From IMG/VR virus record IMGVR_UViG_2778261300_000003: DNA of 16,753 bases; one strand, given 5' to 3'. A model generated the notes under the pieces. It was not told where the DNA came from. It searched no databases and saw nothing but the letters and a program-made list of their open reading frames with translations. Below are positions 3,876 through 16,753 of this stretch, one piece after another. Position numbers and translations under genes: made by a program. Source of the DNA: a virus (Duplodnaviria; Heunggongvirae; Uroviricota; Caudoviricetes). Position 1 is the stretch's first letter, and each line of letters opens with the position of its first letter.

Positions 3876-4066
3876 TCAAATCCAACGACAGACGGCTGGC
3901 ATTTAAGTATTGTGAAATATTATCAAATGTAATCATCATTGATTTACAAAAGATACATTTTGCCCCGAAAGGATTCATGTCAGAAACATCAAAAGATGAT
4001 GTTCTATACTGGGAACCATGACAACACGGGCATCTAAAGTGAATATGGTTTGTAATATTGTCTACC

Positions 4067-4279
4067 TCAAAGCGCCACTACATGAACAGCGGCAGGACCT
4101 TTAGGTCCGTTCTCAATACCAAATTCAACTTCCTGATTCTCAGTTAATGTTTTGAAATCGTTGCTCTGAATTGCTGAGAAATGGACAAACACATCTTTGC
4201 TGCCATCTTTCGGCGTGATGAAACCAAAACCTTTTTCAGGGTTAAACCATTTCACTAAACCAGTCATTTTGTTAGACAT
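4067..4279 (-). CDS. cspI: Cold-shock protein, CspA family (CspI-like)
   Basis: ATG at 4279-4277; [53 protein letters not shown]... carries the RNP1 motif KGFGFI and RNP2 VFVHF of the cold-shock domain. Confidence 0.85.
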
Positions 4280-4640
4280 AATTATTACCTTTTGAAGAAA
4301 TTAGCCCTTGGGCAGAATGGTCCGAAAAAAATATCAGAGAGAAAAACCAACAAGGAAATCTCAAGAGGTACAAATAATAAAATTATAACAATGACTGCTT
4401 CAGATAAATTTGTAACAAACCAGAACACCATTAACGCATGATTAACCACCCATAGCAAGGATTACTTTTGTAAAGAAAAACACAGCAATGAAAGAATAGC
4501 TTTATTTATTAATAAAACGTGTCATTCTGATTAAGACCTTTTATCTTACCCTTAAGATTTCAGGAATTTTGGCTCATGGAAGAGTCCTTTTTATTTAAAT
4601 TTTACATTCCGCGATGTAAATGTTCCGATTTAATATTACC

Positions 4641-6670: not shown

Positions 6671-6949
6671 GATTGTGGTGCTTTTTGTGGGAGTCATCCA
6701 CTTACGCACTTTGTTTTGCCATGCCAGCAGTTAGCTTCTGCTGTAAAACTATTCATGCAGCAAACCTGCACTTCACCACAATGGTTAGCATACTTTTCCT
6801 GATTAAGATTTTGCCAAATATGCTAGCCATTGTTTCATGTATTGGACCTCCTTACTTTTTATTAAAGAGATCCAATATTCACTACTCTGTCCGTATCTCT
6901 ACTCAGGCCTCAGCCTTCTTCGTTATCGTATACAGACGAGCGATGAATT

Positions 6950-7165
6950 TTAATCAGTAATGATGACATTTGCTGCTGCAGGACCTTTAGCACCACTCTC
7001 TATAGAGAAGGTAACCTTTTGACCTTCAAATAAGGTTCGATAATTATCATTCTGAATCGCAGAAAAATGCACAAACACATCTTTACTACCATCAACAGGA
7101 GAAATAAAGCCGAAACCTTTATCAGCGTTAAACCATTTTACTAAACCAGTCATTTTATTTGACAT
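6950..7165 (-). CDS. cspB: Cold-shock protein, CspA family (CspB-like)
   Basis: ATG at 7165; [71 protein letters not shown] with RNP1/RNP2 motifs. Confidence 0.85.
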
Positions 7166-7465
7166 TCTACATTCCTTAACTTGAGCCTTTCGGCATAAAT
7201 GGTTTGCATAACAGAAACGACTTCGTACTTAATTGGAGAGACTCAAAGAAGGAATAAGTGAATAACACCTGAAATGAGAACTGCTTTAGTAAACTACTTC
7301 GTATATCGTCTGTTCTTCAAACCGACGCAATCATTAACGCATAGTTGAACATATGAAGCAATGTTTATTTTAGACATCCAGCCATCTTCAACCCCATCAA
7401 AAAACTATAGCTTTCTTCAGGAACGTGTGTATAGTGCGCCAAGTTATCAGTATTAAGGAATTTTT

Positions 7466-7678: not shown

Positions 7679-7970
7679 GCTATATTAAAGCTTTAATTTC
7701 AGGCCCCATCGGATCACACATGGAGAGTTTTTATGAATAACCCCGTCTGTCTTGATGACTGGTTGATTGGCTTTAAAAGCTTATGCTGTACTTTGGCCGT
7801 AATAGCTCTGCTAATAATATAATAAGCAGACTCATTGTGTTTAGGGACATTGTCCTGGAAGAAAACATTTTAAACATCAGGCAAATAACCAAGTCACCAG
7901 CTAAATAATAAGTTAACAGACATGAGTCCCGGGATGAGATTCAACATTACCATTGCCCCATTTAAAGCAC

Positions 7971-7995
7971 AAAACCCGCTCATCAGCGGGTTTTC
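7971..7995. terminator. Bidirectional intrinsic terminator; on the minus strand a tR'-like terminator of the short late-promoter transcript
   Basis: aaaacccgct-catc-agcgggtttt followed by ctactttttc on the plus strand; the reverse complement gives the stem followed by uuuugugcuuu. Confidence 0.6.
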
Positions 7996-8034
7996 TACTT
8001 TTTCTTAACGTCGGGTATACAAAGCCCATCGTTG

Positions 8035-8070
8035 AAAAAATTTTATCCATATTTTTTGAAAAATGCAAAC
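8035..8070 (-). promoter_or_regulatory. Candidate late promoter (pR'-like), with expected Q-utilisation region, immediately downstream of Q
   Basis: Minus strand reads TTGCAT (plus 8063-8068), a 17-nt spacer, then TAAAAT (plus 8040-8045). It starts about 30 nt after the Q stop and about 60 nt upstream of the terminator at 7971-7995, the classic Q / pR' / tR' arrangement. Sigma-70 match judged by eye only. Confidence 0.4.
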
Positions 8071-8099
8071 ATCATGTCGCCATCTTCAGCAAAAATCAT

Positions 8100-8852
8100 T
8101 TATCTCGTCACCTTCCTCAATTGCGCTTCCGCGTATGCTTCTTCCTGCCAGCACTTTGTTACCAGTTTACCAATGACGTCCGCATACCCCTTATACCACT
8201 GATAATCGGTCAGGTCTGGTACCAGCTTCTGGACATGACGTCGTGCCAGCGTGGTCGGTAAACGACTAAACCGGTTTCCATTACAACGCCCACAAATCTT
8301 ATATACCGGTACGCCATGAAACCGGGTTCTTTTTTCATCCAGAACAATCCCTTTACCCTTACACCCTCTGCACGCTGTGCTGGCTTCGCCCTTACCATGG
8401 CAATGCTGACATAGTTCCTTCACCCATTCTTCCTTGATTACAGATTCCCCGCGTCTGTAGTGTTTCACCACTTCGCGCAATACATTATAAAATCCCGTAC
8501 CTGAACAATGCTCACAGCGAGCCTTACTTGCCGCAGACCTGGAGTAATCAGCAAAGGCAAAACTCACGAGGTAAGGAATAATCTGTAACCGGATTTCTTC
8601 ACTCAATTTGTTCAATGTCGGGTTATCCAGTGCCATCGCGTAATTTAGCAGGCCTTCAATCGCAAACTGAGGGTCCTGAACACCAACTTTTGCCAGAAAT
8701 AAGGCCAACCCAAGTGGTGCTTTCGACTGCACCATCCCCTGCGCTGCCATTACATCCGTAATTGTTAAACAACCGGTGCCTGTCGCTGGAGCGTCATCGC
8801 TCAATTTTGGAGATTTTGGGGAGTAATATTTTGGTAAGGCTTCAAGGTTCAT
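8100..8852 (-). CDS. Late-gene antitermination protein Q (Q21/Q82/QuuQ-like), 250 aa
   Basis: ATG at 8852 with SD GGAG 8 nt upstream (the track ORF starts at a TTG at 8882). Cys/His-rich zinc-binding region (CEHCSGTG ... CQHCHGKG ... CRGCKGKG ... CGRCNG) and position just upstream of the late promoter and lysis genes. Confidence 0.8.
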   Translation of the reverse strand: MNLEALPKYYSPKSPKLSDDAPATGTGCLTITDVMAAQGMVQSKAPLGLALFLAKVGVQDPQFAIEGLLNYAMALDNPTLNKLSEEIRLQIIPYLVSFAFADYSRSAASKARCEHCSGTGFYNVLREVVKHYRRGESVIKEEWVKELCQHCHGKGEASTACRGCKGKGIVLDEKRTRFHGVPVYKICGRCNGNRFSRLPTTLARRHVQKLVPDLTDYQWYKGYADVIGKLVTKCWQEEAYAEAQLRKVTR

Positions 8853-8865
8853 GCTCGTTCTCCAC

Positions 8866-9915
8866 TTACGCCAGTACGCCAATTGCCAGCGCGCGATCGA
8901 TAAAACGAAATATCAGCTCCAGTTGGGAGCCATACTTATCTTCAAATGCCACTGTATCCGTATGCAGCTCGTTGTGATGCTTTCTGCACAAAGGCAACAC
9001 AAAGAGATCATGTGCTTTTGTTCCCATTCCGCCCTGCCCGTGACCAATCAGATGATGCGGATCGTCGGCTGGCATACCGCAGCAAGCACACGGCTGTGTC
9101 TTAACCCAACGTGTGTATTTCTCCTTAACCCAGCGGCGACGTTTAGGCAGCTTCATGAAAGATTCCGGAGACTCTGGATCAACGGTGATGCTTACCACCG
9201 TCTTTTCCTGTGGTGATTTTTGTTGCTGGTGGGCGTAAGGCAACGGTGCAAGATTTTTTGTGCGTTGTTTCAATATGCTGGTGGCGGTCTGCTCTCCCGG
9301 TACGATGTCGCTTTCGCGGTACACCGAGCAGATTTTTTCCGCTGGTAATCCCAGCGAACGACGCGATACAGCCTCAGGTAGTGCATCCACCACCTGATTG
9401 CAGACCGCCCACCAGGATAATTCAGCCAAAGATAATTCCCGCTCCTGCGTACCGCTTATTGCGTGACGGATGACGTCAATCACCCATGCTGTCAGATTTT
9501 GTTGAGCAAGCAGCTCCAGTGATTCCGATGTCTGGTCACGCAGTTGGTTGTCGCAGTGCCAGCACAACACCATTGCGCCGGTACCATAACGGTGAATGAC
9601 TGTTTCAGTGTGATGGTAATCGCCATTAGGCCACTGGCAGGATGTAACATGACGTAATAGCCAGTCGGACAATGCGCCAACGCCGCCAGCAGCACGAATC
9701 ACCCGTTCGTTACTAAAAAACGGCAGCAATGTTTTGTCTTCCGCCAGCGGCTGGCGAACGGCAGGAACGACTCCGGATGGCAGATTACGCATGCTTTTTG
9801 GTTCCGGTTCCACCAGCACTCGAGGATTATGAAATATCTGTATGGATTCACGGCCCGGCTTAAGGACCACCAGCCCAAGCTCAGGCACCAGAACAGGTCT
9901 AAGTAATACCCGCAC
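8866..9915 (-). CDS. YdfU-like (DUF968) protein with C-terminal Cys/His HNH-like motif
   Basis: Frame open from 9954, but the 9954 start is a GTG with no SD; a GTG at 9915 is preceded by GGAGG (4-nt spacer) and gives 349 aa. C-terminal region has CACCG...DDPHHLIGHG...HDLFVLPLCRKHHNELH, resembling HNH/zinc-finger nuclease motifs. Family name from recollection. Confidence 0.55.
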   Translation of the reverse strand: MRVLLRPVLVPELGLVVLKPGRESIQIFHNPRVLVEPEPKSMRNLPSGVVPAVRQPLAEDKTLLPFFSNERVIRAAGGVGALSDWLLRHVTSCQWPNGDYHHTETVIHRYGTGAMVLCWHCDNQLRDQTSESLELLAQQNLTAWVIDVIRHAISGTQERELSLAELSWWAVCNQVVDALPEAVSRRSLGLPAEKICSVYRESDIVPGEQTATSILKQRTKNLAPLPYAHQQQKSPQEKTVVSITVDPESPESFMKLPKRRRWVKEKYTRWVKTQPCACCGMPADDPHHLIGHGQGGMGTKAHDLFVLPLCRKHHNELHTDTVAFEDKYGSQLELIFRFIDRALAIGVLA

Positions 9916-10205
9916 GTTACCTCCAGATCCGTTGCTGGAAAGTGCGGGACGCACGTGGTGGGCGTTCGGAATAAGGCAGCCTGACAGAGATTATCCAGTG
10001 CCGATATCTTCACTCGATTAACGCCAAGCGCTCGCTGATCAACCGCGCCACCTTCATCTGTGACACGCTGAACATCGATGTTCGGGCGCTCTTTCAAAGC
10101 CCAGAATGCTTCAGTGATTAATATCGTCGCCTGCTCCTGTGTCATTCCTGGTCGACATATCCAGGCATCCAGAGCCTCACGAGCCTGTTCAGGAGTGATT
10201 TTCAT
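9699..10205 (-). CDS. rem: Rem-like protein; ORF here is 168 aa and overlaps the YdfU-like start in another frame
   Basis: ATG at 10205; N-terminal about 80 residues (MKITPEQAREALDAWICRPGMTQEQATILITEAFWALKERPNIDVQRVTDEGG...) look protein-like and Rem-like; the C-terminal half (W/C-rich, CGYYLDLFWCLSLGWW...) looks like out-of-frame translation of the ydfU 5' region. Confidence 0.45.
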   Translation of the reverse strand: MKITPEQAREALDAWICRPGMTQEQATILITEAFWALKERPNIDVQRVTDEGGAVDQRALGVNRVKISALDNLCQAALFRTPTTCVPHFPATDLEVTCGYYLDLFWCLSLGWWSLSRAVNPYRYFIILECWWNRNQKACVICHPESFLPFASRWRKTKHCCRFLVTNG

Positions 10206-10416
10206 TGTTCAACCGCCCCGCCCGCTTCGTCTTACGATATTCGTCATAAACTTTGGGATCATACTGAAGCTCCCCGCCAGATGCCTCCTGTAGACGCATC
10301 GCGCGACCTTCAGGAACCAGTATCCCCCAAGCAGCAACACTTGCCAGTCTCACTCCTGCGGCATTGGCAAGCTTTGTTTTGCTGCCAAAAAAAGTAATTG
10401 CGTCAGCTTTAAGCAT
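10189..10416 (-). CDS. dicC: Cro-type repressor, DicC-like (75 aa)
   Basis: ATG at 10416 with SD AGGAGG 5 nt upstream (the track start at 10419 is a TTG). MLKADAITFFGSKTKLANAAGVRLASVAAWG...EGRAMRLQEASGGELQYDPKVYDEYRKTKRAGRLNNENHS, with an HTH in the N-terminus; divergent from the DicA-like gene. Confidence 0.75.
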   Translation of the reverse strand: MLKADAITFFGSKTKLANAAGVRLASVAAWGILVPEGRAMRLQEASGGELQYDPKVYDEYRKTKRAGRLNNENHS

Positions 10417-10428
10417 CAAAGCCTCCTA

Positions 10429-10448
10429 TTGTTAGACTTTTCTAACAT
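10429..10448. promoter_or_regulatory. Operator-like inverted repeat in the dicC-dicA intergenic region
   Basis: TTGTTAGA-cttt-TCTAACAt, a near-perfect 8-bp inverted repeat with 4-bp spacer, between the divergent repressor genes and overlapping the dicC SD region. Confidence 0.5.
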
Positions 10449-10496
10449 TATTGTGCGCGGGATACCTAAGTCAAGAAAAATTAGAATTACCTAACT

Positions 10497-10904
10497 ATGG
10501 ATACAAGAACCCTAGGCCAGCGAGTTCTGGCGCGACGAAAAGAATTACGCTTAACACAACGAGAAGCTGCGCGCCTCGCTGGGGTTGCTCACGTCACAAT
10601 TTCACAATGGGAAAGAGACGAAACCCAGCCAGTCGGAAAACGATTGTTTGCTTTAGCGGATGCTCTGAAGTGCTCACCTACATGGCTAATGTTTGGTGAC
10701 GAAGACAAGGCACCAGTGCCGGCACAAGAACTTCATGTGGAAACAGAGCTAACTCCCAACCACAAAGAATTGATCGAATTATTCGATGCTCTTCCATCTT
10801 CCGAGCAGGAAGCCTTGCTGTCTGAAATGCGCGCAAGAGTAGAAAACTTCAACAAACTCTTCGAAGAAATGCTTAAAGCGCGTAAAAATAAATCAATAAA
10901 ATAA
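10497..10904 (+). CDS. dicA: Prophage repressor, DicA-like (XRE-family HTH, cI analogue)
   Basis: MDTRTLGQRVLARRKELRLTQREAARLAGVAHVTISQWERDETQP... N-terminal HTH (QREAARLAGVAHVTISQWE); C-terminal SPTWLMFGDEDK...EMRARVENFNKLFEEMLKAR resembles K-12 DicA as recalled. Confidence 0.85.
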   Translation: MDTRTLGQRVLARRKELRLTQREAARLAGVAHVTISQWERDETQPVGKRLFALADALKCSPTWLMFGDEDKAPVPAQELHVETELTPNHKELIELFDALPSSEQEALLSEMRARVENFNKLFEEMLKARKNKSIK

Positions 10905-10939
10905 CATTCTTTTCAAGTGATTAGTTGCGCCCACTCTTT

Positions 10940-10959
10940 TTGTTAGACTAATCTAACAA
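10940..10959. promoter_or_regulatory. Perfect operator palindrome upstream of the dicB-operon promoter
   Basis: TTGTTAGA-ctaa-TCTAACAA, a perfect 8-bp inverted repeat with the same half-site as the 10429-10448 element. A weaker related repeat lies at about 10978-10994. Confidence 0.55.
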
Positions 10960-10965
10960 AAAACA

Positions 10966-10994
10966 CTTGCCTCTTATGTTAGGTTATTCTAAAT
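10966..10994 (+). promoter_or_regulatory. Candidate promoter of the ydfABC-dicF-dicB operon (pL analogue)
   Basis: TTGCCT (10966-10971), 17-nt spacer, TAAATT (10989-10994), directly downstream of and overlapping the operator-like repeats. By-eye sigma-70 match only. Confidence 0.35.
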
Positions 10995-11072
10995 TACTTT
11001 CCATCAAGACACCGCACGGTGTTCTCAGCAAACAGTTCCGCTACCCCGGCGTTAAGGGGAAATGAGGTCAGC

Positions 11073-11228
11073 ATGGATACTATCGATCTTGGCAACAGCG
11101 AATCTCTGGTGTACGGCGTGTTTCCAAACCAGGACGGCACGTTCACCGCAATGACGTATACCAAAAGCAAAACGTTTAAAACCGAAAATGGTGCCCGTCG
11201 CTGGCTGGAAAGAAACTCAGGTGAGTGA
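11073..11228 (+). CDS. ydfA: YdfA-like small protein (51 aa)
   Basis: ATG at 11073 with SD GAGGT; MDTIDLGNSESLVYGVFPNQDGTFTAMTYTKSKTFKTENGARRWLERNSGE. The track ORF starts upstream at 11019. Confidence 0.65.
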   Translation: MDTIDLGNSESLVYGVFPNQDGTFTAMTYTKSKTFKTENGARRWLERNSGE

Positions 11229-11229
11229 T

Positions 11230-11358
11230 ATGGATTTCGACACAATCATGGAAAAGGCTTACGAAGAATACTTCGAAGGCCTTGCCGAAGGCGAAGAAGC
11301 TCTCAGCTTCAGTGAGTTTAAACAGGCGCTTTCCAGTTCGGCAAAATCTAACGGCTGA
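11230..11358 (+). CDS. ydfB: YdfB-like small protein (42 aa), not in the ORF track
   Basis: Hand translation: ATG at 11230, 2 nt after the ydfA stop; MDFDTIMEKAYEEYFEGLAEGEEALSFSEFKQALSSSAKSNG; TGA at 11356-11358. Confidence 0.5.
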   Translation: MDFDTIMEKAYEEYFEGLAEGEEALSFSEFKQALSSSAKSNG

Positions 11359-11387
11359 TAAGCGAAACAGCACCGCGAGGAATCAGT

Positions 11388-11606
11388 ATGCAGAAACGAG
11401 AACCCGTCATCATCGCGCCAGACTATACCGATGATGAACTTTATGAGTGGATGCGCCAGAAAATTAATGCAGCGCAGGATCTGAAATGGGCTAATGAAGC
11501 CAGGGCTAAGCAGGCTGAAAATCTGTCCGCTCTGGAGCAGGATATCACCAATCTGGAAAAAGCAGCGGCATTAAGCATTGCCAGAATGATTACATACCCG
11601 CGTTAG
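11388..11606 (+). CDS. ydfC: YdfC-like protein (72 aa)
   Basis: ATG at 11388 with SD GAGGAA; MQKREPVIIAPDYTDDELYEWMRQKINAAQDLKWANEARAKQAENLSALEQDITNLEKAAALSIARMITYPR. Confidence 0.65.
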   Translation: MQKREPVIIAPDYTDDELYEWMRQKINAAQDLKWANEARAKQAENLSALEQDITNLEKAAALSIARMITYPR

Positions 11607-11946
11607 TAGCTAATCAACAAAGCTAAGGTTAGTAATTAAGGAGTTCTCCACGGGTGAGGTGGAGTGCGTGCGCCGGACACGGGTGCGCATCCGGAACTGA
11701 CAGTTTACTGAAAGGATATTTCCCTGAAAAGTCAGACCATAACGCGAAAGCGCACGGCGAGGTAGCTGGTTCATAGATAGCCTGTCGTTAAATTTTCGTC
11801 GACCGTGCGCTTCCGGTTGTGGCAACCCGCGAAATGGCGCGGCGGTAAGTATGGCGGGGTTATTCCTTCCCCGTTGAGGACACCGGGTTGTCAGGTTGAC
11901 CATACGCTTAAGTGACAACCCCGCTGCAACGCCCTCTGTTATCAAT

Positions 11947-12004
11947 TTTCTGGTGACGTTTGGCGGTATCAGTTTTACTCCGTGACTGCTCTGCCGCCCT
12001 TTTT
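11947..12004 (+). ncRNA. dicF: DicF small RNA (ftsZ-targeting antisense sRNA)
   Basis: tttctggtgacgtttggcggtatcagttttactccgtgactgctctgccgcccttttt matches DicF as recalled; it ends in a GC stem (ggcgg...ccgcc) plus U-run and lies between ydfC and dicB. The upstream 330 nt is GC-rich and structured. Confidence 0.7.
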
Positions 12005-12173
12005 AAAGTGAATTTTGTGATGTGGTGAATGCGGCTGAGCGCACGCGGAACAGTTAAAACCAAAAACAGTGTTATGGGTGGATTCTCTGTATCCGGCGTT
12101 AATTGTTAACTGGTTAACGTCACCTGGAGGCACCAGGCACTGCATCACAAAATTCATTGTTGAGGACGCGATA

Positions 12174-12362
12174 ATGAAAACGTTATTACCAAACGTTAAT
12201 ACGTCTGAAGGTTGTTTTGAAATTGGTGTCACTATCAGTAACCCAGTATTTACTGAAGATGCCATTAACAAGAGAAAACAAGAACGGGAGCTATTAAATA
12301 AAATATGCATTGTTTCAATGCTGGCTCGTTTACGTCTGATGCCAAAAGGATGTGCACAATGA
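12174..12362 (+). CDS. dicB: Cell-division inhibitor DicB (62 aa)
   Basis: ATG at 12174 with SD GAGGA; MKTLLPNVNTSEGCFEIGVTISNPVFTEDAINKRKQERELLNKICIVSMLARLRLMPKGCAQ matches K-12 DicB as recalled. The track ORF starts upstream at 12069. Confidence 0.85.
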   Translation: MKTLLPNVNTSEGCFEIGVTISNPVFTEDAINKRKQERELLNKICIVSMLARLRLMPKGCAQ

Positions 12363-12550
12363 ATTCAGCATTTGTGCTTGTTCTGACAGTTTTTCTTGTT
12401 TCCGGAGAGCCAGTTGATATTGCAGTCAGTGTTCACAGGACAATGCAGGAGTGTATGACTGCAGCAACCGAACAGAAAATTCCCGGTAACTGTTACCCGG
12501 TCGATAAAGTTATTCACCAGGATAATATCGAAATCCCGGCAGGTCTTTAA
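12359..12550 (+). CDS. ydfD: YdfD-like small membrane/lysis protein (63 aa)
   Basis: ATG at 12359 overlaps the dicB stop (ATGA). MNSAFVLVLTVFLVSGEPVDIAVSVHRTMQECMTAATEQKIPGNCYPVDKVIHQDNIEIPAGL with an N-terminal hydrophobic segment. Confidence 0.75.
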   Translation: MNSAFVLVLTVFLVSGEPVDIAVSVHRTMQECMTAATEQKIPGNCYPVDKVIHQDNIEIPAGL

Positions 12551-12642
12551 AACAGTTCCGTAATAAATATCCGGTTTCATTCTTATATGCCAGCAATGGC
12601 AGGGATTTGTTCATCCTTAAATCTGTCATGAGGTTAAAACAA

Positions 12643-15114
12643 ATGAGTAAAGTCTTTATTTGCGCCGCTATTCCTGACGAACTGGCAACAAGGGAAGAAG
12701 GCGCTGTGGCTGTAGCCACAGCCATTGAAGCTGGCGACGAACGCCGTGCTCGAGCAAAATTTCACTGGCAATTCCTGGAACATTATCCGGCTGCTCAGGA
12801 CTGCGCTTATAAATTTATTGTCTGCGAGGATAAACCTGGCATACCCCGCCCTGCCCTCGATTCATGGGATGCTGAATATATGCAGGAAAACCGCTGGGAT
12901 GAGGAGTCTGCTTCTTTTGTCCCGGTTGAGACTGAATCCGATCCGATGAACGTCACTTTTGACAAGCTGGCCCCTGAAGTACAGAACGCTGTCATGGTTA
13001 AGTTCGACACATGTGAAAACATCACCGTTGATATGGTTATTAGCGCACAGGAATTGTTGCAGGAAGACATGGCAACATTCGACGGACATATCGTTGAAGC
13101 GTTGATGAAAATGCCAGAAGTTAACGCCATGTATCCGGAGCTTAAGTTGCACGCCATTGGGTGGGTTAAGCATAAATGTATTCCTGGTGCTAAATGGCCC
13201 GAAATTCAGGCAGAGATGCGCATCTGGAAAAAACGTCGCGAAGGTGAACGCAAGGAAACCGGAAAATACACGTCTGTTGTTGATCTCGCCCGCGCCAGAG
13301 CCAATCAACAGTACACTGAAAATTCAACAGGAAAAATCAGCCCGGTCATTGCTGCCATTCATCGCGAATACAAGCAGACATGGAAAACACTGGATGACGA
13401 ACTGGCCTACGCTCTCTGGCCTAGTGATGTGGATGCCGGAAACATTGACGGCAGCATCCATCGCTGGGCAAAAAAAGAAGTTATCGACAACGACCGCGAA
13501 GACTGGAAGCGTATCTCGGCATCAATGCGCAAACAGCCTGATGCCCTTCGCTACGACCGCCAAACTATTTTTGGCCTTGTCCGTGAGCGTCCGATCGACA
13601 TTCACAAAGATCCCGTAGCACTGAACAAATATATCTGCGAATACCTGACGACAAAGGGCGTGTTTGAGAATGAAGAAACAGACCTGGGCACTGTTGATGT
13701 TCTCCAGTCATCAGAAACACAAACTGATGCAGTGGAAACTGAGGTATCTGATATCCCAAAAAATGAAACCGCGCCGGAAGCTGAACCATCTGTAGAGCGT
13801 GAGGGGCCGTTCTATTTCCTCTTCGCAGATAAGGACGGAGAAAAATACGGTCGCGCAAACAAACTCTCTGGTCTGGATAAGGCACTGGCTGCTGGCGCCA
13901 CTGAAATCACAAAAGAAGAATATTTTGCCCGAAAAAATGGCACATACACGGGCTTACCGCAAAATGTAGATACCGCTGAAGATTCAGAACAACCAGAGCC
14001 GATAAAAGTTACCGCTGACGAAGTAAACAAAATTATGCAGGCAGCCAATATCAGCCAGCCTGACGCCGATAAGTTGCTTGCTGCATCACGTGGTGAATTT
14101 GTTGAAGGGATTAGTGACCCGAATGATCCGAAATGGGTTAAGGGGCTCCAGACCCGCGATTCTGTGAACCAGAACCAGCATGAATCGGAACGGAACTACC
14201 AAAAAGCGGAACAAAACAGTCCAAATGCGTTACAAAACGAGCCAGAAACGAAACAGCCTGAACCAGTAGCGCAACAGGAAGTGGAAAAAGTCTGCACCGC
14301 CTGCGGTCAGACCGGCGGCGGCAACTGCCCTGATTGTGGCGCGGTGATGGGCGACGCAACATACCAAGAAACATTCGATGAAGAGTATCAGGTTGAAGTT
14401 CAGGAAGATGATCCGGAGGAAATGGAAGGCGCTGAACATCCACACAAGGAGAACACTGGCGGCAATCAGCATCACAATAGCGATAATGAAACTGGCGAGA
14501 CGGCAGATCACCCAATTAAGGTGAACGGTCATCACGAAATCACATCCACCAGCAGGACGTGTGACCATCTAATGATCGACCTTGAAACCATGGGAAAAAA
14601 TCCTGATGCCCCGATCATCTCAATAGGTGCAATATTTTTCGATCCGCAAACCGGAGATATGGGACCGGAATTTAGTAAGACTATCGATCTGGAAACTGCT
14701 GGCGGAGTCATTGATCGGGACACCATTAAATGGTGGCTTAAGCAATCACGCGAAGCGCAATCTGCCATTATGACCGATGAAATCCCGTTAGATGATGCAC
14801 TGTTACAATTGCGAGAATTTATCGACGAAAACTCCGGTGAATTTTTTGTTCAGGTTTGGGGAAATGGAGCCAACTTCGACAACACGATTTTGCGCCGTTC
14901 ATACGAACGGCAGGGGATCCCCTGCCCGTGGCGTTACTACAACGATCGCGATGTACGCACAATCGTTGAGCTGGGGAAAGCCATAGACTTCGATGCCAGA
15001 ACGGCTATTCCATTCGAAGGTGAGCGCCATAATGCACTTGATGACGCCCGTTACCAGGCAAAATACGTTTCAGTTATCTGGCAAAAACTGATCCCGAGTC
15101 AGGCTGATTCTTAA
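12643..15114 (+). CDS. Large exonuclease: RecE/YdfE-like N-terminal region and zinc-ribbon linker fused to a C-terminal DEDDh (DnaQ-like) 3'-5' exonuclease domain (823 aa)
   Basis: ATG at 12643 with GAGG upstream (track start 12607 is a TTG). CTACGQTGGGNCPDCG zinc ribbon around 14294-14340. C-terminal domain (about 14560-15114) carries Exo I MIDLETMG, Exo II WGNGANFD and Exo III HNALDDARY motifs, read directly from the translation. The N-terminal two thirds resemble the Rac RecE N-terminal region and K-12 YdfE as recalled. Confidence 0.8.
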   Translation: MSKVFICAAIPDELATREEGAVAVATAIEAGDERRARAKFHWQFLEHYPAAQDCAYKFIVCEDKPGIPRPALDSWDAEYMQENRWDEESASFVPVETESDPMNVTFDKLAPEVQNAVMVKFDTCENITVDMVISAQELLQEDMATFDGHIVEALMKMPEVNAMYPELKLHAIGWVKHKCIPGAKWPEIQAEMRIWKKRREGERKETGKYTSVVDLARARANQQYTENSTGKISPVIAAIHREYKQTWKTLDDELAYALWPSDVDAGNIDGSIHRWAKKEVIDNDREDWKRISASMRKQPDALRYDRQTIFGLVRERPIDIHKDPVALNKYICEYLTTKGVFENEETDLGTVDVLQSSETQTDAVETEVSDIPKNETAPEAEPSVEREGPFYFLFADKDGEKYGRANKLSGLDKALAAGATEITKEEYFARKNGTYTGLPQNVDTAEDSEQPEPIKVTADEVNKIMQAANISQPDADKLLAASRGEFVEGISDPNDPKWVKGLQTRDSVNQNQHESERNYQKAEQNSPNALQNEPETKQPEPVAQQEVEKVCTACGQTGGGNCPDCGAVMGDATYQETFDEEYQVEVQEDDPEEMEGAEHPHKENTGGNQHHNSDNETGETADHPIKVNGHHEITSTSRTCDHLMIDLETMGKNPDAPIISIGAIFFDPQTGDMGPEFSKTIDLETAGGVIDRDTIKWWLKQSREAQSAIMTDEIPLDDALLQLREFIDENSGEFFVQVWGNGANFDNTILRRSYERQGIPCPWRYYNDRDVRTIVELGKAIDFDARTAIPFEGERHNALDDARYQAKYVSVIWQKLIPSQADS

Positions 15115-15186
15115 TGTTCAACTGTCGCCGGTTGTGACTGGTATTCTGCAACCGGCGCTCGTCTGATGTAAGAGATAAAGAAATCG

Positions 15187-15438
15187 ATGAGCGAAGTAAT
15201 CATGATTGTCTCTCCCGGCAAATGGGTATCCGAAGAGCAGTTAATTGCGCTGAAAGGAATAAAAAAAGGTACGTTAAAAAAGGCCCGGGAAAAATCGTTT
15301 ATGGAAGGAAGGGAATATAAGCATGTCGCTCATGACGGTATGCCATGGGATAACAGTCCATGCTTTTACAACCTGGAAGAAATTGATCGCTGGATTGAGC
15401 GCCAGGCATCAGCGAGACCAAGACGTCATCTTACTTGA
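15187..15438 (+). CDS. Excisionase-like protein (lambda Xis family)
   Basis: MSEVIMIVSPGKWVSEEQLIALKGIKKGTLKKAREKSFMEGREYKHVAHDGMPWDNSPCFYNLEEIDRWIERQ... The GREY..H segment resembles the lambda Xis winged-helix core; it sits immediately upstream of the integrase. Confidence 0.55.
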   Translation: MSEVIMIVSPGKWVSEEQLIALKGIKKGTLKKAREKSFMEGREYKHVAHDGMPWDNSPCFYNLEEIDRWIERQASARPRRHLT

Positions 15439-15472
15439 CTAAAAGCCACACTAACTAATGAGAGAAGTTGAA

Positions 15473-16753
15473 ATGAAATATCCGACAGGCGTGGAAAACC
15501 ATGGAGGGAAATTACGTATCTGGTTTGTTTATAAAGACGTAAGAGTCAGGGAAAATCTGGGGGTTCCTGACACAGCAAAAAACAGGCGCGTTGCAGGTGA
15601 ACTACGCTCCTCTGTTTGTTACGCAATAAAAACTGGTGTTTTCGACTATGCAAAACAGTTTCCCTCCTCACGCAATCTGGAAAAATTTGGTGAGGCCCGA
15701 CAAGATTTAACCATAAAAGAACTGGCTGAAAAATTTCTGGCACTGAAAGAAACTGAAGTCGCCAAAACATCACTCAACACATACCGTGCCGTCATCAAAA
15801 ATATCCTGAGCATAATCGGTGAAAAAAATCTTGCCTCATCGATTAATAAAGAAAAATTACTGGAGGTTCGTAAAGAGTTACTGACTGGATACCAGATCCC
15901 CAAAAGTAACTATATTGTTACACAACCAGGGAGATCGGCTGTAACTGTAAATAATTACATGACAAATCTTAACGCCGTGTTCCAGTTTGGTGTTGATAAC
16001 GGTTACCTGGCAGATAATCCGTTTAAGGGGATCTCGCCATTAAAGGAATCAAGAACCATTCCGGATCCTCTTTCGCGGGAAGAATTTATCCGTCTTATCG
16101 ATGCGTGCAGAAATCAGCAAGCAAAAAATTTATGGTGTGTTTCTGTTTATACTGGAGTTCGCCCTGGTGAGCTGTGTGCACTTGGATGGGAGGACATAGA
16201 TCTGAAAAATGGAACAATGATGATCAGGAGAAATTTAGCAAAAGACCGTTTCACGGTACCAAAAACACAGGCGGGAACCAATCGGGTCATTCATCTTATT
16301 AAGCCAGCAATCGACGCTCTCCGGAGTCAGATGACATTAACGAGACTGAGCAAAGAGCATATCATTGATGTTCACCTCAGAGAGTATGGCAGAACAGAAA
16401 AACAAAAATGCACCTTTGTTTTTCAACCTGAAGTGTCAGCGAGAGTAAAAAATTATGGTGACCATTTTACCGTTGACTCAATAAGGCAGATGTGGGACGC
16501 AGCGATAAAACGTGCCGGACTCCGCCATCGAAAATCATATCAGTCGAGACATACTTATGCCTGCTGGTCGCTGACAGCTGGTGCTAACCCGGCATTTATA
16601 GCAAACCAGATGGGCCATGCAGATGCGCAAATGGTATTTCAGGTATACGGAAAATGGATGTCTGAAAACAATAATGCACAGGTAGCTTTGTTAAATACAC
16701 AGTTAAGCGAGTTTGCCCCAACCATGCCCCATAACGAAGCAATGAAAAATTAA
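15473..16753 (+). CDS. Tyrosine-type site-specific integrase (phage integrase family), 426 aa
   Basis: ATG at 15473 (an upstream ATG at 15458 lacks an SD). Catalytic-domain signatures: TGVRPGELCALGWEDIDL, RHTYACWSLTAGANPAFIANQMGHAD, VYGKW (catalytic Tyr region). Stop TAA is the last three bases of the window. Confidence 0.9.
   Translation: MKYPTGVENHGGKLRIWFVYKDVRVRENLGVPDTAKNRRVAGELRSSVCYAIKTGVFDYAKQFPSSRNLEKFGEARQDLTIKELAEKFLALKETEVAKTSLNTYRAVIKNILSIIGEKNLASSINKEKLLEVRKELLTGYQIPKSNYIVTQPGRSAVTVNNYMTNLNAVFQFGVDNGYLADNPFKGISPLKESRTIPDPLSREEFIRLIDACRNQQAKNLWCVSVYTGVRPGELCALGWEDIDLKNGTMMIRRNLAKDRFTVPKTQAGTNRVIHLIKPAIDALRSQMTLTRLSKEHIIDVHLREYGRTEKQKCTFVFQPEVSARVKNYGDHFTVDSIRQMWDAAIKRAGLRHRKSYQSRHTYACWSLTAGANPAFIANQMGHADAQMVFQVYGKWMSENNNAQVALLNTQLSEFAPTMPHNEAMKN

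Follow-up and report, generated by a model that had tools for sequence, protein, structure and literature searches.

The stretch of viral DNA analysed here (IMG/VR record IMGVR_UViG_2778261300_000003; 16,753 nucleotides at its full length, hereafter the window) is recognisable as a defective, Qin-like prophage of E. coli. A dicC-like gene lies divergently beside a dicA-like repressor gene and, on the dicA strand, these are followed by ydfA, ydfB, ydfC, the DicF RNA and dicB, the order that defines a Qin-type locus and that is found in annotated genomes (Table 1). By sequence, these genes belong to the DicA, DicC and DicB families. The DicA-like protein matches the NCBIfam DicA model (NF007257) with 224.7 bits, against a cut-off of 101, over residues 1-134 of its 135, and over residues 1-71 it aligns with the DNA-binding domain of the P22 c2 repressor (1adr/2r1j; E = 1e-18). 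It has the form typical of the DicA family, a short repressor with an N-terminal HTH_3 domain like that of P22 c2; Pfam reports helix-turn-helix families only in this protein, and no LexA/S24-type self-cleavage domain. The DicC-like protein scores 165 bits with NCBIfam NF007282 (cut-off 130) and matches Pfam P22_Cro with E = 1.1e-12. The 896-bp immunity region is present, at a coverage of at least 80%, in 565 of 5426 complete E. coli genomes. Relative to its close relatives, the window has a 7.84-kb deletion, with the junction at 10004-10006, that removes rem, hokD, relBE, flxA and a replication gene and, with rem deleted, this copy is without the only known DicA antirepressor.

Table 1. Genes, predicted promoters and operator-like sites of the immunity region and of the operon that it would control (positions in the window)
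Feature	Position	Strand	Details
dicC-like gene	10189-10416	-	Cro analogue, 75 aa; NCBIfam DicC NF007282, Pfam P22_Cro
O1	10429-10448		18-bp core 10430-10447; TTGTTAGACTTTTCTAACAT; aligns with K-12 Oc
Predicted dicC promoter	10447-10474	-	-35 TTGACT 10474-10469, 16-bp spacer, -10 AATAAT 10452-10447
O2	10477-10496		AAATTAGAATTACCTAACTA; weak, asymmetric; adjoins dicA ATG; homologue of K-12 'Oa'
dicA-like repressor gene	10497-10904	+	135 aa; identical to RefSeq WP_000381212.1
O3	10940-10959		perfect palindrome TTGTTAGACTAATCTAACAA; arms reach 10937-10962 (11-nt arms)
Predicted dicB-operon promoter (dicBp homologue)	10967-10995	+	-35 TTGCCT 10967-10972, 17-bp spacer, -10 TAAATT 10990-10995
O4	10975-10994		TATGTTAGGTTATTCTAAAT; core 10977-10994, TGTTAGGTTATTCTAAAT; in dicBp spacer, overlaps -10
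Controlled operon ydfA-ydfB-ydfC-DicF-dicB	11073-12362	+	gene order as in annotated genomes
ydfA	11073-11228	+	Pfam DUF1391
ydfB	11230-11358	+	
ydfC	11388-11606	+	
DicF RNA	11948-11999	+	Rfam DicF, 76.7 bits
dicB	12174-12362	+	product 100% identical to K-12 DicB

The predicted dicC promoter is the only sigma-70-like match between 10150 and 11150 (10 of 12 positions) and has the register of the K-12 promoter. Its -10 adjoins O1 and its predicted start site falls within O1, and the homologue of the K-12 operator Oc therefore overlaps the -10/start region, the start being a predicted one. The dicB-operon promoter aligns with that of K-12 (TTGACC-17-TAATCT) and its hexamers are kept across loci; they are weak, with 8 of 12 positions agreeing with the consensus, under the threshold of the sigma-70 scan, which counts against the model proposed below. 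Upstream of dicA, O2 includes a -10-like sequence, TAGAAT (10482-10487), 9 nt from the ATG, and a TAnnnT hexamer is located 6-10 nt upstream of this codon in every allele class. No Shine-Dalgarno sequence is present before the dicA ATG and, taken with the hexamer, this suggests that the dicA mRNA is leaderless or nearly so, as is the mRNA of lambda cI, and is transcribed from a weak promoter. A candidate leftward promoter through O2 (TTGTAT 10506-10501, 17 bp, TAATTT 10483-10478) resembles dicBp and also exists in K-12; it was dropped because its -35 lies within dicA codons and is missing in O157-type alleles.

Four operator-like sites around the repressor gene

The original prediction placed an inverted repeat, TTGTTAGA-N4-TCTAACAA, in the dicC-dicA intergenic region, a perfect copy upstream of the dicB promoter and a weaker third copy overlapping the promoter spacer. 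When the whole window was searched for this pattern with up to 3 mismatches, and compared with 200 shuffles of the sequence, the first two copies were recovered and were the only matches: O1 has one mismatch, its last base being T, and O3 has none. The shuffled sequences gave a mean of 0.10 matches, and two matches were reached in only 1 of the 200. The 18-bp core, TGTTAG-N6-CTAACA, is found with up to 2 mismatches at three places, O1, O3 and 10977-10994 (mean 0.66 in the shuffles), the last of which is the predicted third copy, positioned between TTGCCT and TAAATT hexamers 17 bp apart. A fourth copy, O2, had been overlooked. In a further search that allowed up to 3 mismatches, there were 10 matches, with 6.5 expected, and the third and fourth copies (O4 and O2) are weak on sequence statistics alone; their support comes from position and conservation. 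On the minus strand O2 reads GTTAGGTAATTCTAATTT, which agrees with O4 in 16 of 18 positions; a degenerate pattern built on the two finds no third place (0.01 expected).

O3 lies upstream of the dicBp -35, at a distance of 7 bp, and the gap between O3 and O4 is only 15 bp. The centre-to-centre spacings, 36 bp for O3-O4 and 49 bp for O1-O2, do not correspond to whole helical turns, another point against the model. A third operator on each side, as proposed for K-12, was searched for and none was found, nor is a middle site (Om) recognisable in the window; there are two recognisable sites per side, and not the three operators at each early promoter that are customary in lambdoid phages, and the shortfall relative to K-12 also counts against the model. 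The DNA upstream of O3 is unconserved across loci, and the only palindrome-like element between O1 and O2 is a lone CTTAGG beside the dicC -35.

Conservation was evaluated at loci taken from one genome per species, from annotated E. coli genomes and phages and from viral contigs, with 249 distinct loci among the matches listed. The viral-contig scans each provided the best 80 matches to the first query sequence, and four more were run with reordered alignments for other alleles. In the one-genome-per-species scan, which gave 23 loci, 12 short Campylobacter matches (residues 19-115 or 82-115) were left unused and 3 loci with a broken reading frame were excluded. At the ~65 window-type loci among the matches listed, the arms TGTTAG/CTAACA are invariant and the centre varies freely. 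Across the 30 distinct upstream and 50 distinct downstream sequences from these loci, there is zero entropy at TGTTAG and CTAAC of O1, O3 and O4, and the six central operator positions are variable; the centre of O3 has at least 10 forms among loci with an identical repressor. The TGTTAG and TCTAA of O4 are invariant in all 50 downstream sequences, and O2 is kept in all window-type loci. The repeats are, in keeping with the role first suggested for them, present and conserved in homologous immunity regions, with arms that are invariant in dozens of independent loci. The P22 c2 repressor recognises an 18-bp site, in which it contacts positions 2-7 and 12-17 and none of positions 8-11 (PMC4267663). 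The sites in the window have this geometry, as 18-bp dyads that specify positions 2-7 and leave the four central bases free, and invariant arms around a free centre are thus what the homologous P22 repressor would lead one to expect (PMC4267663).

A proposed immunity switch and its relatives

The four 18-20-bp sites very probably serve as operators in the immunity switch of a defective lambdoid prophage of the Qin family. DicA-like dimers would bind TGTTAG-R-N4-Y-CTAACA through the P22 c2-like helix-turn-helix domain, reading positions 2-7 of each half-site and leaving the central four bases uncontacted, with O1 and O2 as the presumptive counterpart of lambda OR, and O3 and O4 as that of OL. 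At the dicC promoter the main repressor site is probably O1 and, as it adjoins the -10 and covers the expected start, repressor bound there would cover both and shut off the leftward dicC promoter, and with it the Cro analogue. O3, the best site, would anchor the repressor and help to fill its weak neighbour O4 in the dicBp spacer and -10; repressor at O3 and O4 would then block the rightward ydfABC-dicF-dicB promoter and keep the cell-division inhibitors silent. O2 is the likely site at which DicC, or excess DicA, turns dicA down, much as OR3 serves PRM in lambda. The sites themselves, their homology to K-12 Oc, their conservation, their covariation with the repressor allele and the edges of the mosaic block are observed. 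Binding of Oc-type repeats and repression of dicC and dicBp by the DicA-like protein are supported by this homology, conservation and covariation; binding as such, the protein that would act at each site, the cooperativity and the dicA promoter we infer.

The dicA-dicC-dicBp region of K-12 Qin was reportedly described as immunity-like by Bejar et al. in 1986 and 1988. Oc, the K-12 operator (TTGTTAGTCATAACTAACAA), is by alignment the positional homologue of O1. A K-12 dicA-dicC promoter fragment could be cloned on high-copy plasmids only when Oc had been point-mutated (Yun et al. 2012, PMC3441716). Oc is bound by DicA in vivo and single-base changes destroy this binding; when placed before a reporter, Oc conferred DicA-dependent repression that was abolished by one A-to-C change (PMC3441716). 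It overlaps the -10 of the dicC promoter, the start of dicC having been mapped by 5′ RACE (PMC3441716), and the DicA site at this promoter emerged again from a mutational reporter scan in K-12 (PMC7567609). Bound at Oc, DicA activates dicA, for which K-12 has no obvious promoter (PMC3441716), and the weak, O2-shut dicA promoter proposed here agrees with both observations. DicA did not bind either of the other sites proposed for K-12, Om and Oa, alone (PMC3441716), and O2, perhaps also O4, may therefore need cooperativity or be sites for DicC. The K-12 dicB promoter is repressed 22-fold by DicA, and repression is relieved by the antirepressor Rem, by urea and by heat (Ragunathan et al. 2023, PMC10448788). 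The location at which DicA binds there is regarded as unknown, and as low-evidence, by the authors of PMC7567609; the role proposed for O3 and O4 is accordingly one drawn only from comparative data, which are useful in placing DicA sites at the dicB promoter.

Likeness to K-12 Qin extends to the gene order (leftward dicC, rightward dicA and ydfABC-dicF-dicB) and the family models matched, to an Oc-type palindrome at the dicC -10, a further site next to the dicA ATG and a pair about dicBp, with matching distances, and to the TGTTAG outer half-site, a 135-aa repressor without a self-cleavage domain and flanks that are 96-100% identical. The window differs from K-12 in its repressor (57% identical), in the N-terminus of DicC, in an operator centre that is free where that of K-12 is Y-A-T-R, and in the loss of rem, the gene of the DicA antirepressor. 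With P22 immC it shares a homologous N-terminal repressor domain, a Cro-like protein (DicC matches P22_Cro) and an 18-bp dyad in which positions 2-7 are conserved, 3-5 of them reading T-T-A, and the A/T-rich centre is uncontacted. The P22 half-site is ATTTAAG, whereas that of the window is TGTTAGR with two recognisable sites per side, and the short C-terminal domain of the window repressor, of 65 aa, bears no relation to the LexA-like self-cleaving domain of c2. Given that a self-cleaving domain is lacking, the switch would be controlled by antirepressor, urea or heat and not by RecA (PMC10448788). As in lambda cI/cro, the repressor and cro genes are divergent and operators are shared by both early promoters, with the repressor gene between them; also as in lambda, K-12 DicA stimulates transcription of its own gene, in a switch that is bistable (PMC3441716, PMC10448788). 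Unlike lambda, there is no RecA-mediated cleavage and there are two sites, not three, and the repressor fold details and the operator sequence differ. The window therefore contains an uncharacterised but common natural allele, present in about one-tenth of complete E. coli genomes, of the well-known K-12 dicA-dicC-dicB switch; this switch and Oc are textbook K-12 biology and, in this respect, there is little that is new.

Probable cassette exchange and repressor alleles

The window was aligned to K-12 Qin and identity was computed by segment. Positions 10150-10312 are 99% identical, followed by 61% in the 5′ part of dicC, 63% in the dicC-dicA intergenic region, 52% and 60% in the N- and C-terminal domains of dicA, 57% in the dicBp region and 96-100% from 11006 onwards. 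The diverged block, 10313-11005 (52-63% identical), has sharp edges at ~10312 and ~11005 and is set between flanks of 96-99% identity, and it is in this alignment with K-12 dicA/dicC that O1 pairs with Oc. All four sites, dicA, the dicB promoter and the DicC helix-turn-helix lie inside the block, as expected of an exchangeable lambdoid immunity cassette. Window DicC is 86% identical to K-12 DicC with every difference in the N-terminal part, and the first ~35 dicC codons, including those for the helix-turn-helix, fall within the diverged cassette. The observation that the repressor differs from K-12 DicA and the downstream genes are nearly identical holds (57% for DicA, 100% for DicB and 96-100% for the DNA past 11006), and the mosaic immunity region that was proposed from it is real; it is not confined to the repressor N-terminus, and is the larger block defined here. 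At least three other cassette types in E. coli (at least four in all) sit between these conserved flanks and, as in lambdoid phages generally, it is the repressor, the DNA-binding part of cro and the operators that are exchangeable within them. The block 10313-11005 is most probably an immunity cassette that is swapped by recombination between the conserved flanks.

At least five repressor classes were recognised, each with its own palindrome at the same two places. Repressors with T-Q-R at the start of helix 2 are accompanied by (T)GTTAG-N6-CTAAC(A), those with S-Q-A at this position and a helix 3 identical to that of the window by CCTTAG-N6-CTAAGG, those with a VSGSSISLWE helix 3 by ATTGAG-N4-CTCAAT and more distant alleles by CTAAC-N4-GTTAG, CTTAAC-N4-GTTAAG or CTTGCA-N4-TGCAAG. 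The DicA of O157:H7-type and PPompW prophages (WP_000787428.1) and a third E. coli allele (WP_001003381.1) share with the window the conserved flanks, the four-site layout and the C-terminal domain. The O157 type differs in having CCTTAG-N6-CTAAGG, even though helix 3 is identical to that of the window, and SQA rather than TQR at the start of helix 2; the third allele has ATTGAG-N4-CTCAAT and a different helix 3.

Two positions of the half-site vary with the repressor. Counted over distinct sites, G occupies position 2 in 105 of the 126 half-sites of the window type, and C occupies it in 62 of the 86 of the O157 type. Position 7, the last base of the 8-bp half-site (TTGTTAGA in the window, TTGTTAGT in K-12), is a purine in 117 of the 126 half-sites of the window type versus a pyrimidine in all 126 of the K-12 type (from 56 K-12-type loci), and this rule holds at all eight half-sites of the window type and of the K-12 type. 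From these counts, the last base of TTGTTAGA is the sole operator position that separates the window allele from K-12. The proposal that the repeat defines the immunity specificity of the element is therefore borne out in part: position 7 does distinguish the allele, but the outer TGTTAG is common to the K-12 DicA operators. DicA helix 3 and the DicC helix-turn-helix change together with position 7.

Tentatively, and with less than even confidence, these associations can be read as a two-part code in which the start of helix 2 sets position 2, and DicA helix 3 and the DicC helix-turn-helix set position 7. T-Q-R alleles, through a hypothetical contact between Arg22 and guanine, may specify G at position 2 and S-Q-A alleles C; A-HVTI may go with a purine at position 7 and S-HVSV with a pyrimidine. 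If so, Qin prophages of the window and K-12 types would be heteroimmune by virtue of one base pair per half-site, and exchange of either part would give rise to new immunities. It is quite possible, if somewhat doubtful, that the sites are real operators that do not make the prophage heteroimmune to K-12 Qin, the cassette having diverged by neutral drift and recombination. Both repressors have the same outer six bases in their operators, TGTTAG-N6-CTAACA, and the presumed contact residues Q21, R22, H32, V33, S36 and Q37 in common and, as position 7 varies within each class by transitions only, ancestry and mutation bias, not selection, are a possible alternative explanation for the pattern. 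Against such homoimmunity, the purine/pyrimidine split at position 7 extends to all eight half-sites, the position is within the block contacted by P22 c2 (PMC4267663), and DicA helix 3 (A-HVTI vs S-HVSV) and the DicC helix-turn-helix change with it. The allele series is useful as a set of natural specificity swaps with which the reading of positions 2 and 7 by P22 c2-like repressors could be probed, as could cross-repression of cell-division inhibitors between Qin-like prophages.

The weak sites and the dicB-operon leader

That O2 and O4 are mainly targets of DicC, or promoter elements for RNA polymerase, with DicA acting only through O1 and O3, is a rather unlikely reading, and one that is compatible with the switch proposed above and not exclusive of it. 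K-12 Oa alone is not bound by DicA (PMC3441716) and, as O2 has the -10-like TAGAAT and O4 the dicBp -10 TAAATT, the conservation of these sites could partly be promoter conservation. O2 is, moreover, nearly the same in the window and O157 types, which have a near-identical DicC helix-turn-helix and different strong palindromes. The TGTTAG half of O4, however, lies in the spacer, where there is little constraint from polymerase, and yet is invariant; in O157-type loci this half becomes CTTAG, following the rule of the class, and class-specific changes at position 2 are seen in O2 too (CCTAAC vs CCTAAT). We give almost no weight to the reading in which the repeats have no function as operators, being chance palindromes, leftovers of an old duplication or, for O3, the dicA terminator: A+T-rich intergenic DNA does yield many weak matches, 10 at 3 mismatches where 6.5 are expected, and O3 can form an 11-bp hairpin just 3′ of dicA, but no T-run follows O3, the terminator scan makes no call there, two near-perfect copies far exceed chance expectation, invariant arms with a variable centre are the reverse of the pattern for a hairpin terminator or for neutral DNA, and chance, a neutral repeat and a terminator are excluded for practical purposes by this conservation, by covariation of the palindrome with repressor class and by K-12 genetics, the homologue Oc having been proven genetically (PMC3441716).

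Downstream of the sites, the dicB operon has a 70-nt leader. An Rfam search of this leader gave no family match and its folding energy (z = 0.05) is uninformative. The leader is kept across all immunity classes, and a 5′ hairpin and two interleaved 4-bp helices within it show compensatory changes.

Conserved elements around the dicA switch

The leader of the dicB operon, between its promoter and the ydfA initiation codon, is kept in all immunity classes and in several genera. It contains a hairpin (ACACC-GCAC-GGTGT) whose stem sequences differ in relatives while the pairing is kept, followed on the 3′ side by two interleaved 4-bp helices that could possibly form a small pseudoknot. Of the cells, 86% are paired, whereas sliding the partners gives 20-39%; at 5 pairs both sides have changed. 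The leader matches no family in Rfam, and its folding energy is not out of the ordinary.

Promoter spacers usually vary freely; that of the predicted dicC promoter is kept among window-type loci, those with the window-type repressor, of E. coli, Citrobacter and Buttiauxella, and carries one isolated minus-strand CTTAGG half-site. In every allele class of the DicA-family loci, a −10-like hexamer, TAnnnT, lies 6-10 nt upstream of the dicA ATG, in the forms TAGAAT, TAGCAT, TAAGAT and TATATT, and no Shine-Dalgarno sequence precedes this ATG. The hexamer and the missing Shine-Dalgarno sequence suggest that the repressor mRNA is leaderless, or nearly so, as is the mRNA of lambda cI.

Coordinates of features in the window
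Feature	Position (strand)	Detail
cspA-type thermoregulator leader	4040-4424 (-)	Rfam RF01766, 114 bits
cspA-type thermoregulator leader	6934-7326 (-)	Rfam RF01766, 159 bits
Deletion junction	10004-10006	3-bp overlap
Predicted dicC promoter spacer	10453-10468	GCGCGGGATAYCTAAG
Hexamer before dicA ATG	10482-10487	
dicB-operon leader	11001-11072	
Leader hairpin	11009-11022	
First interleaved helix	11040-11043/11049-11052	
Second interleaved helix	11045-11048/11057-11060	

Operator recognition and the DicA homologues

The repressor encoded at 10497-10904 was compared with those of four O157-type and PPompW prophages (L026-L028 and L034). Helix 3, VAHVTISQWERDETQP, is exactly the same in the O157-type and window proteins, but the operators differ, with CCTTAG in the O157 type and TGTTAG in the window. 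The two DicA proteins differ consistently at residues 6 and 8 and where helix 2 begins, which reads SQA in the O157 type and TQR in the window. Arg22 of the window DicA is a candidate for reading the guanine at operator position 2.

Three homologous loci, L011-L013 (E. coli ECMA0423 and Shigella flexneri SFBU1023 and SFBU0723), were left out of the analysis: their dicA frame is broken and ends after 5-23 residues, which reflects either a pseudogene or an assembly error. In Campylobacter concisus (L014-L025), sequences without the N-terminal domain are 53-62% identical to DicA over residues 82-115, the ELIELFDALP..E..RARV region of its C-terminal domain, and this C-terminal module may therefore occur alone or within other proteins.

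Loss of rem, and the cold-shock leaders

Relative to near-identical prophages, the window has a 7.84-kb deletion that corresponds to 7883-15722 of one such locus, L036, and affects the ORFs at 8866-9954(-) and 9699-10205(-). It takes out rem, the DicA antirepressor gene, together with hokD, relBE, ydfV, flxA, ydfW and an O-like replication gene, and cuts off the 3′ portion of a ydaT-like gene. The window's copy of the dicA switch is left without any known inducer protein.

Both RF01766 leaders are located upstream of prophage cold-shock genes, identified by comparison with L036 as cspI and cspB.
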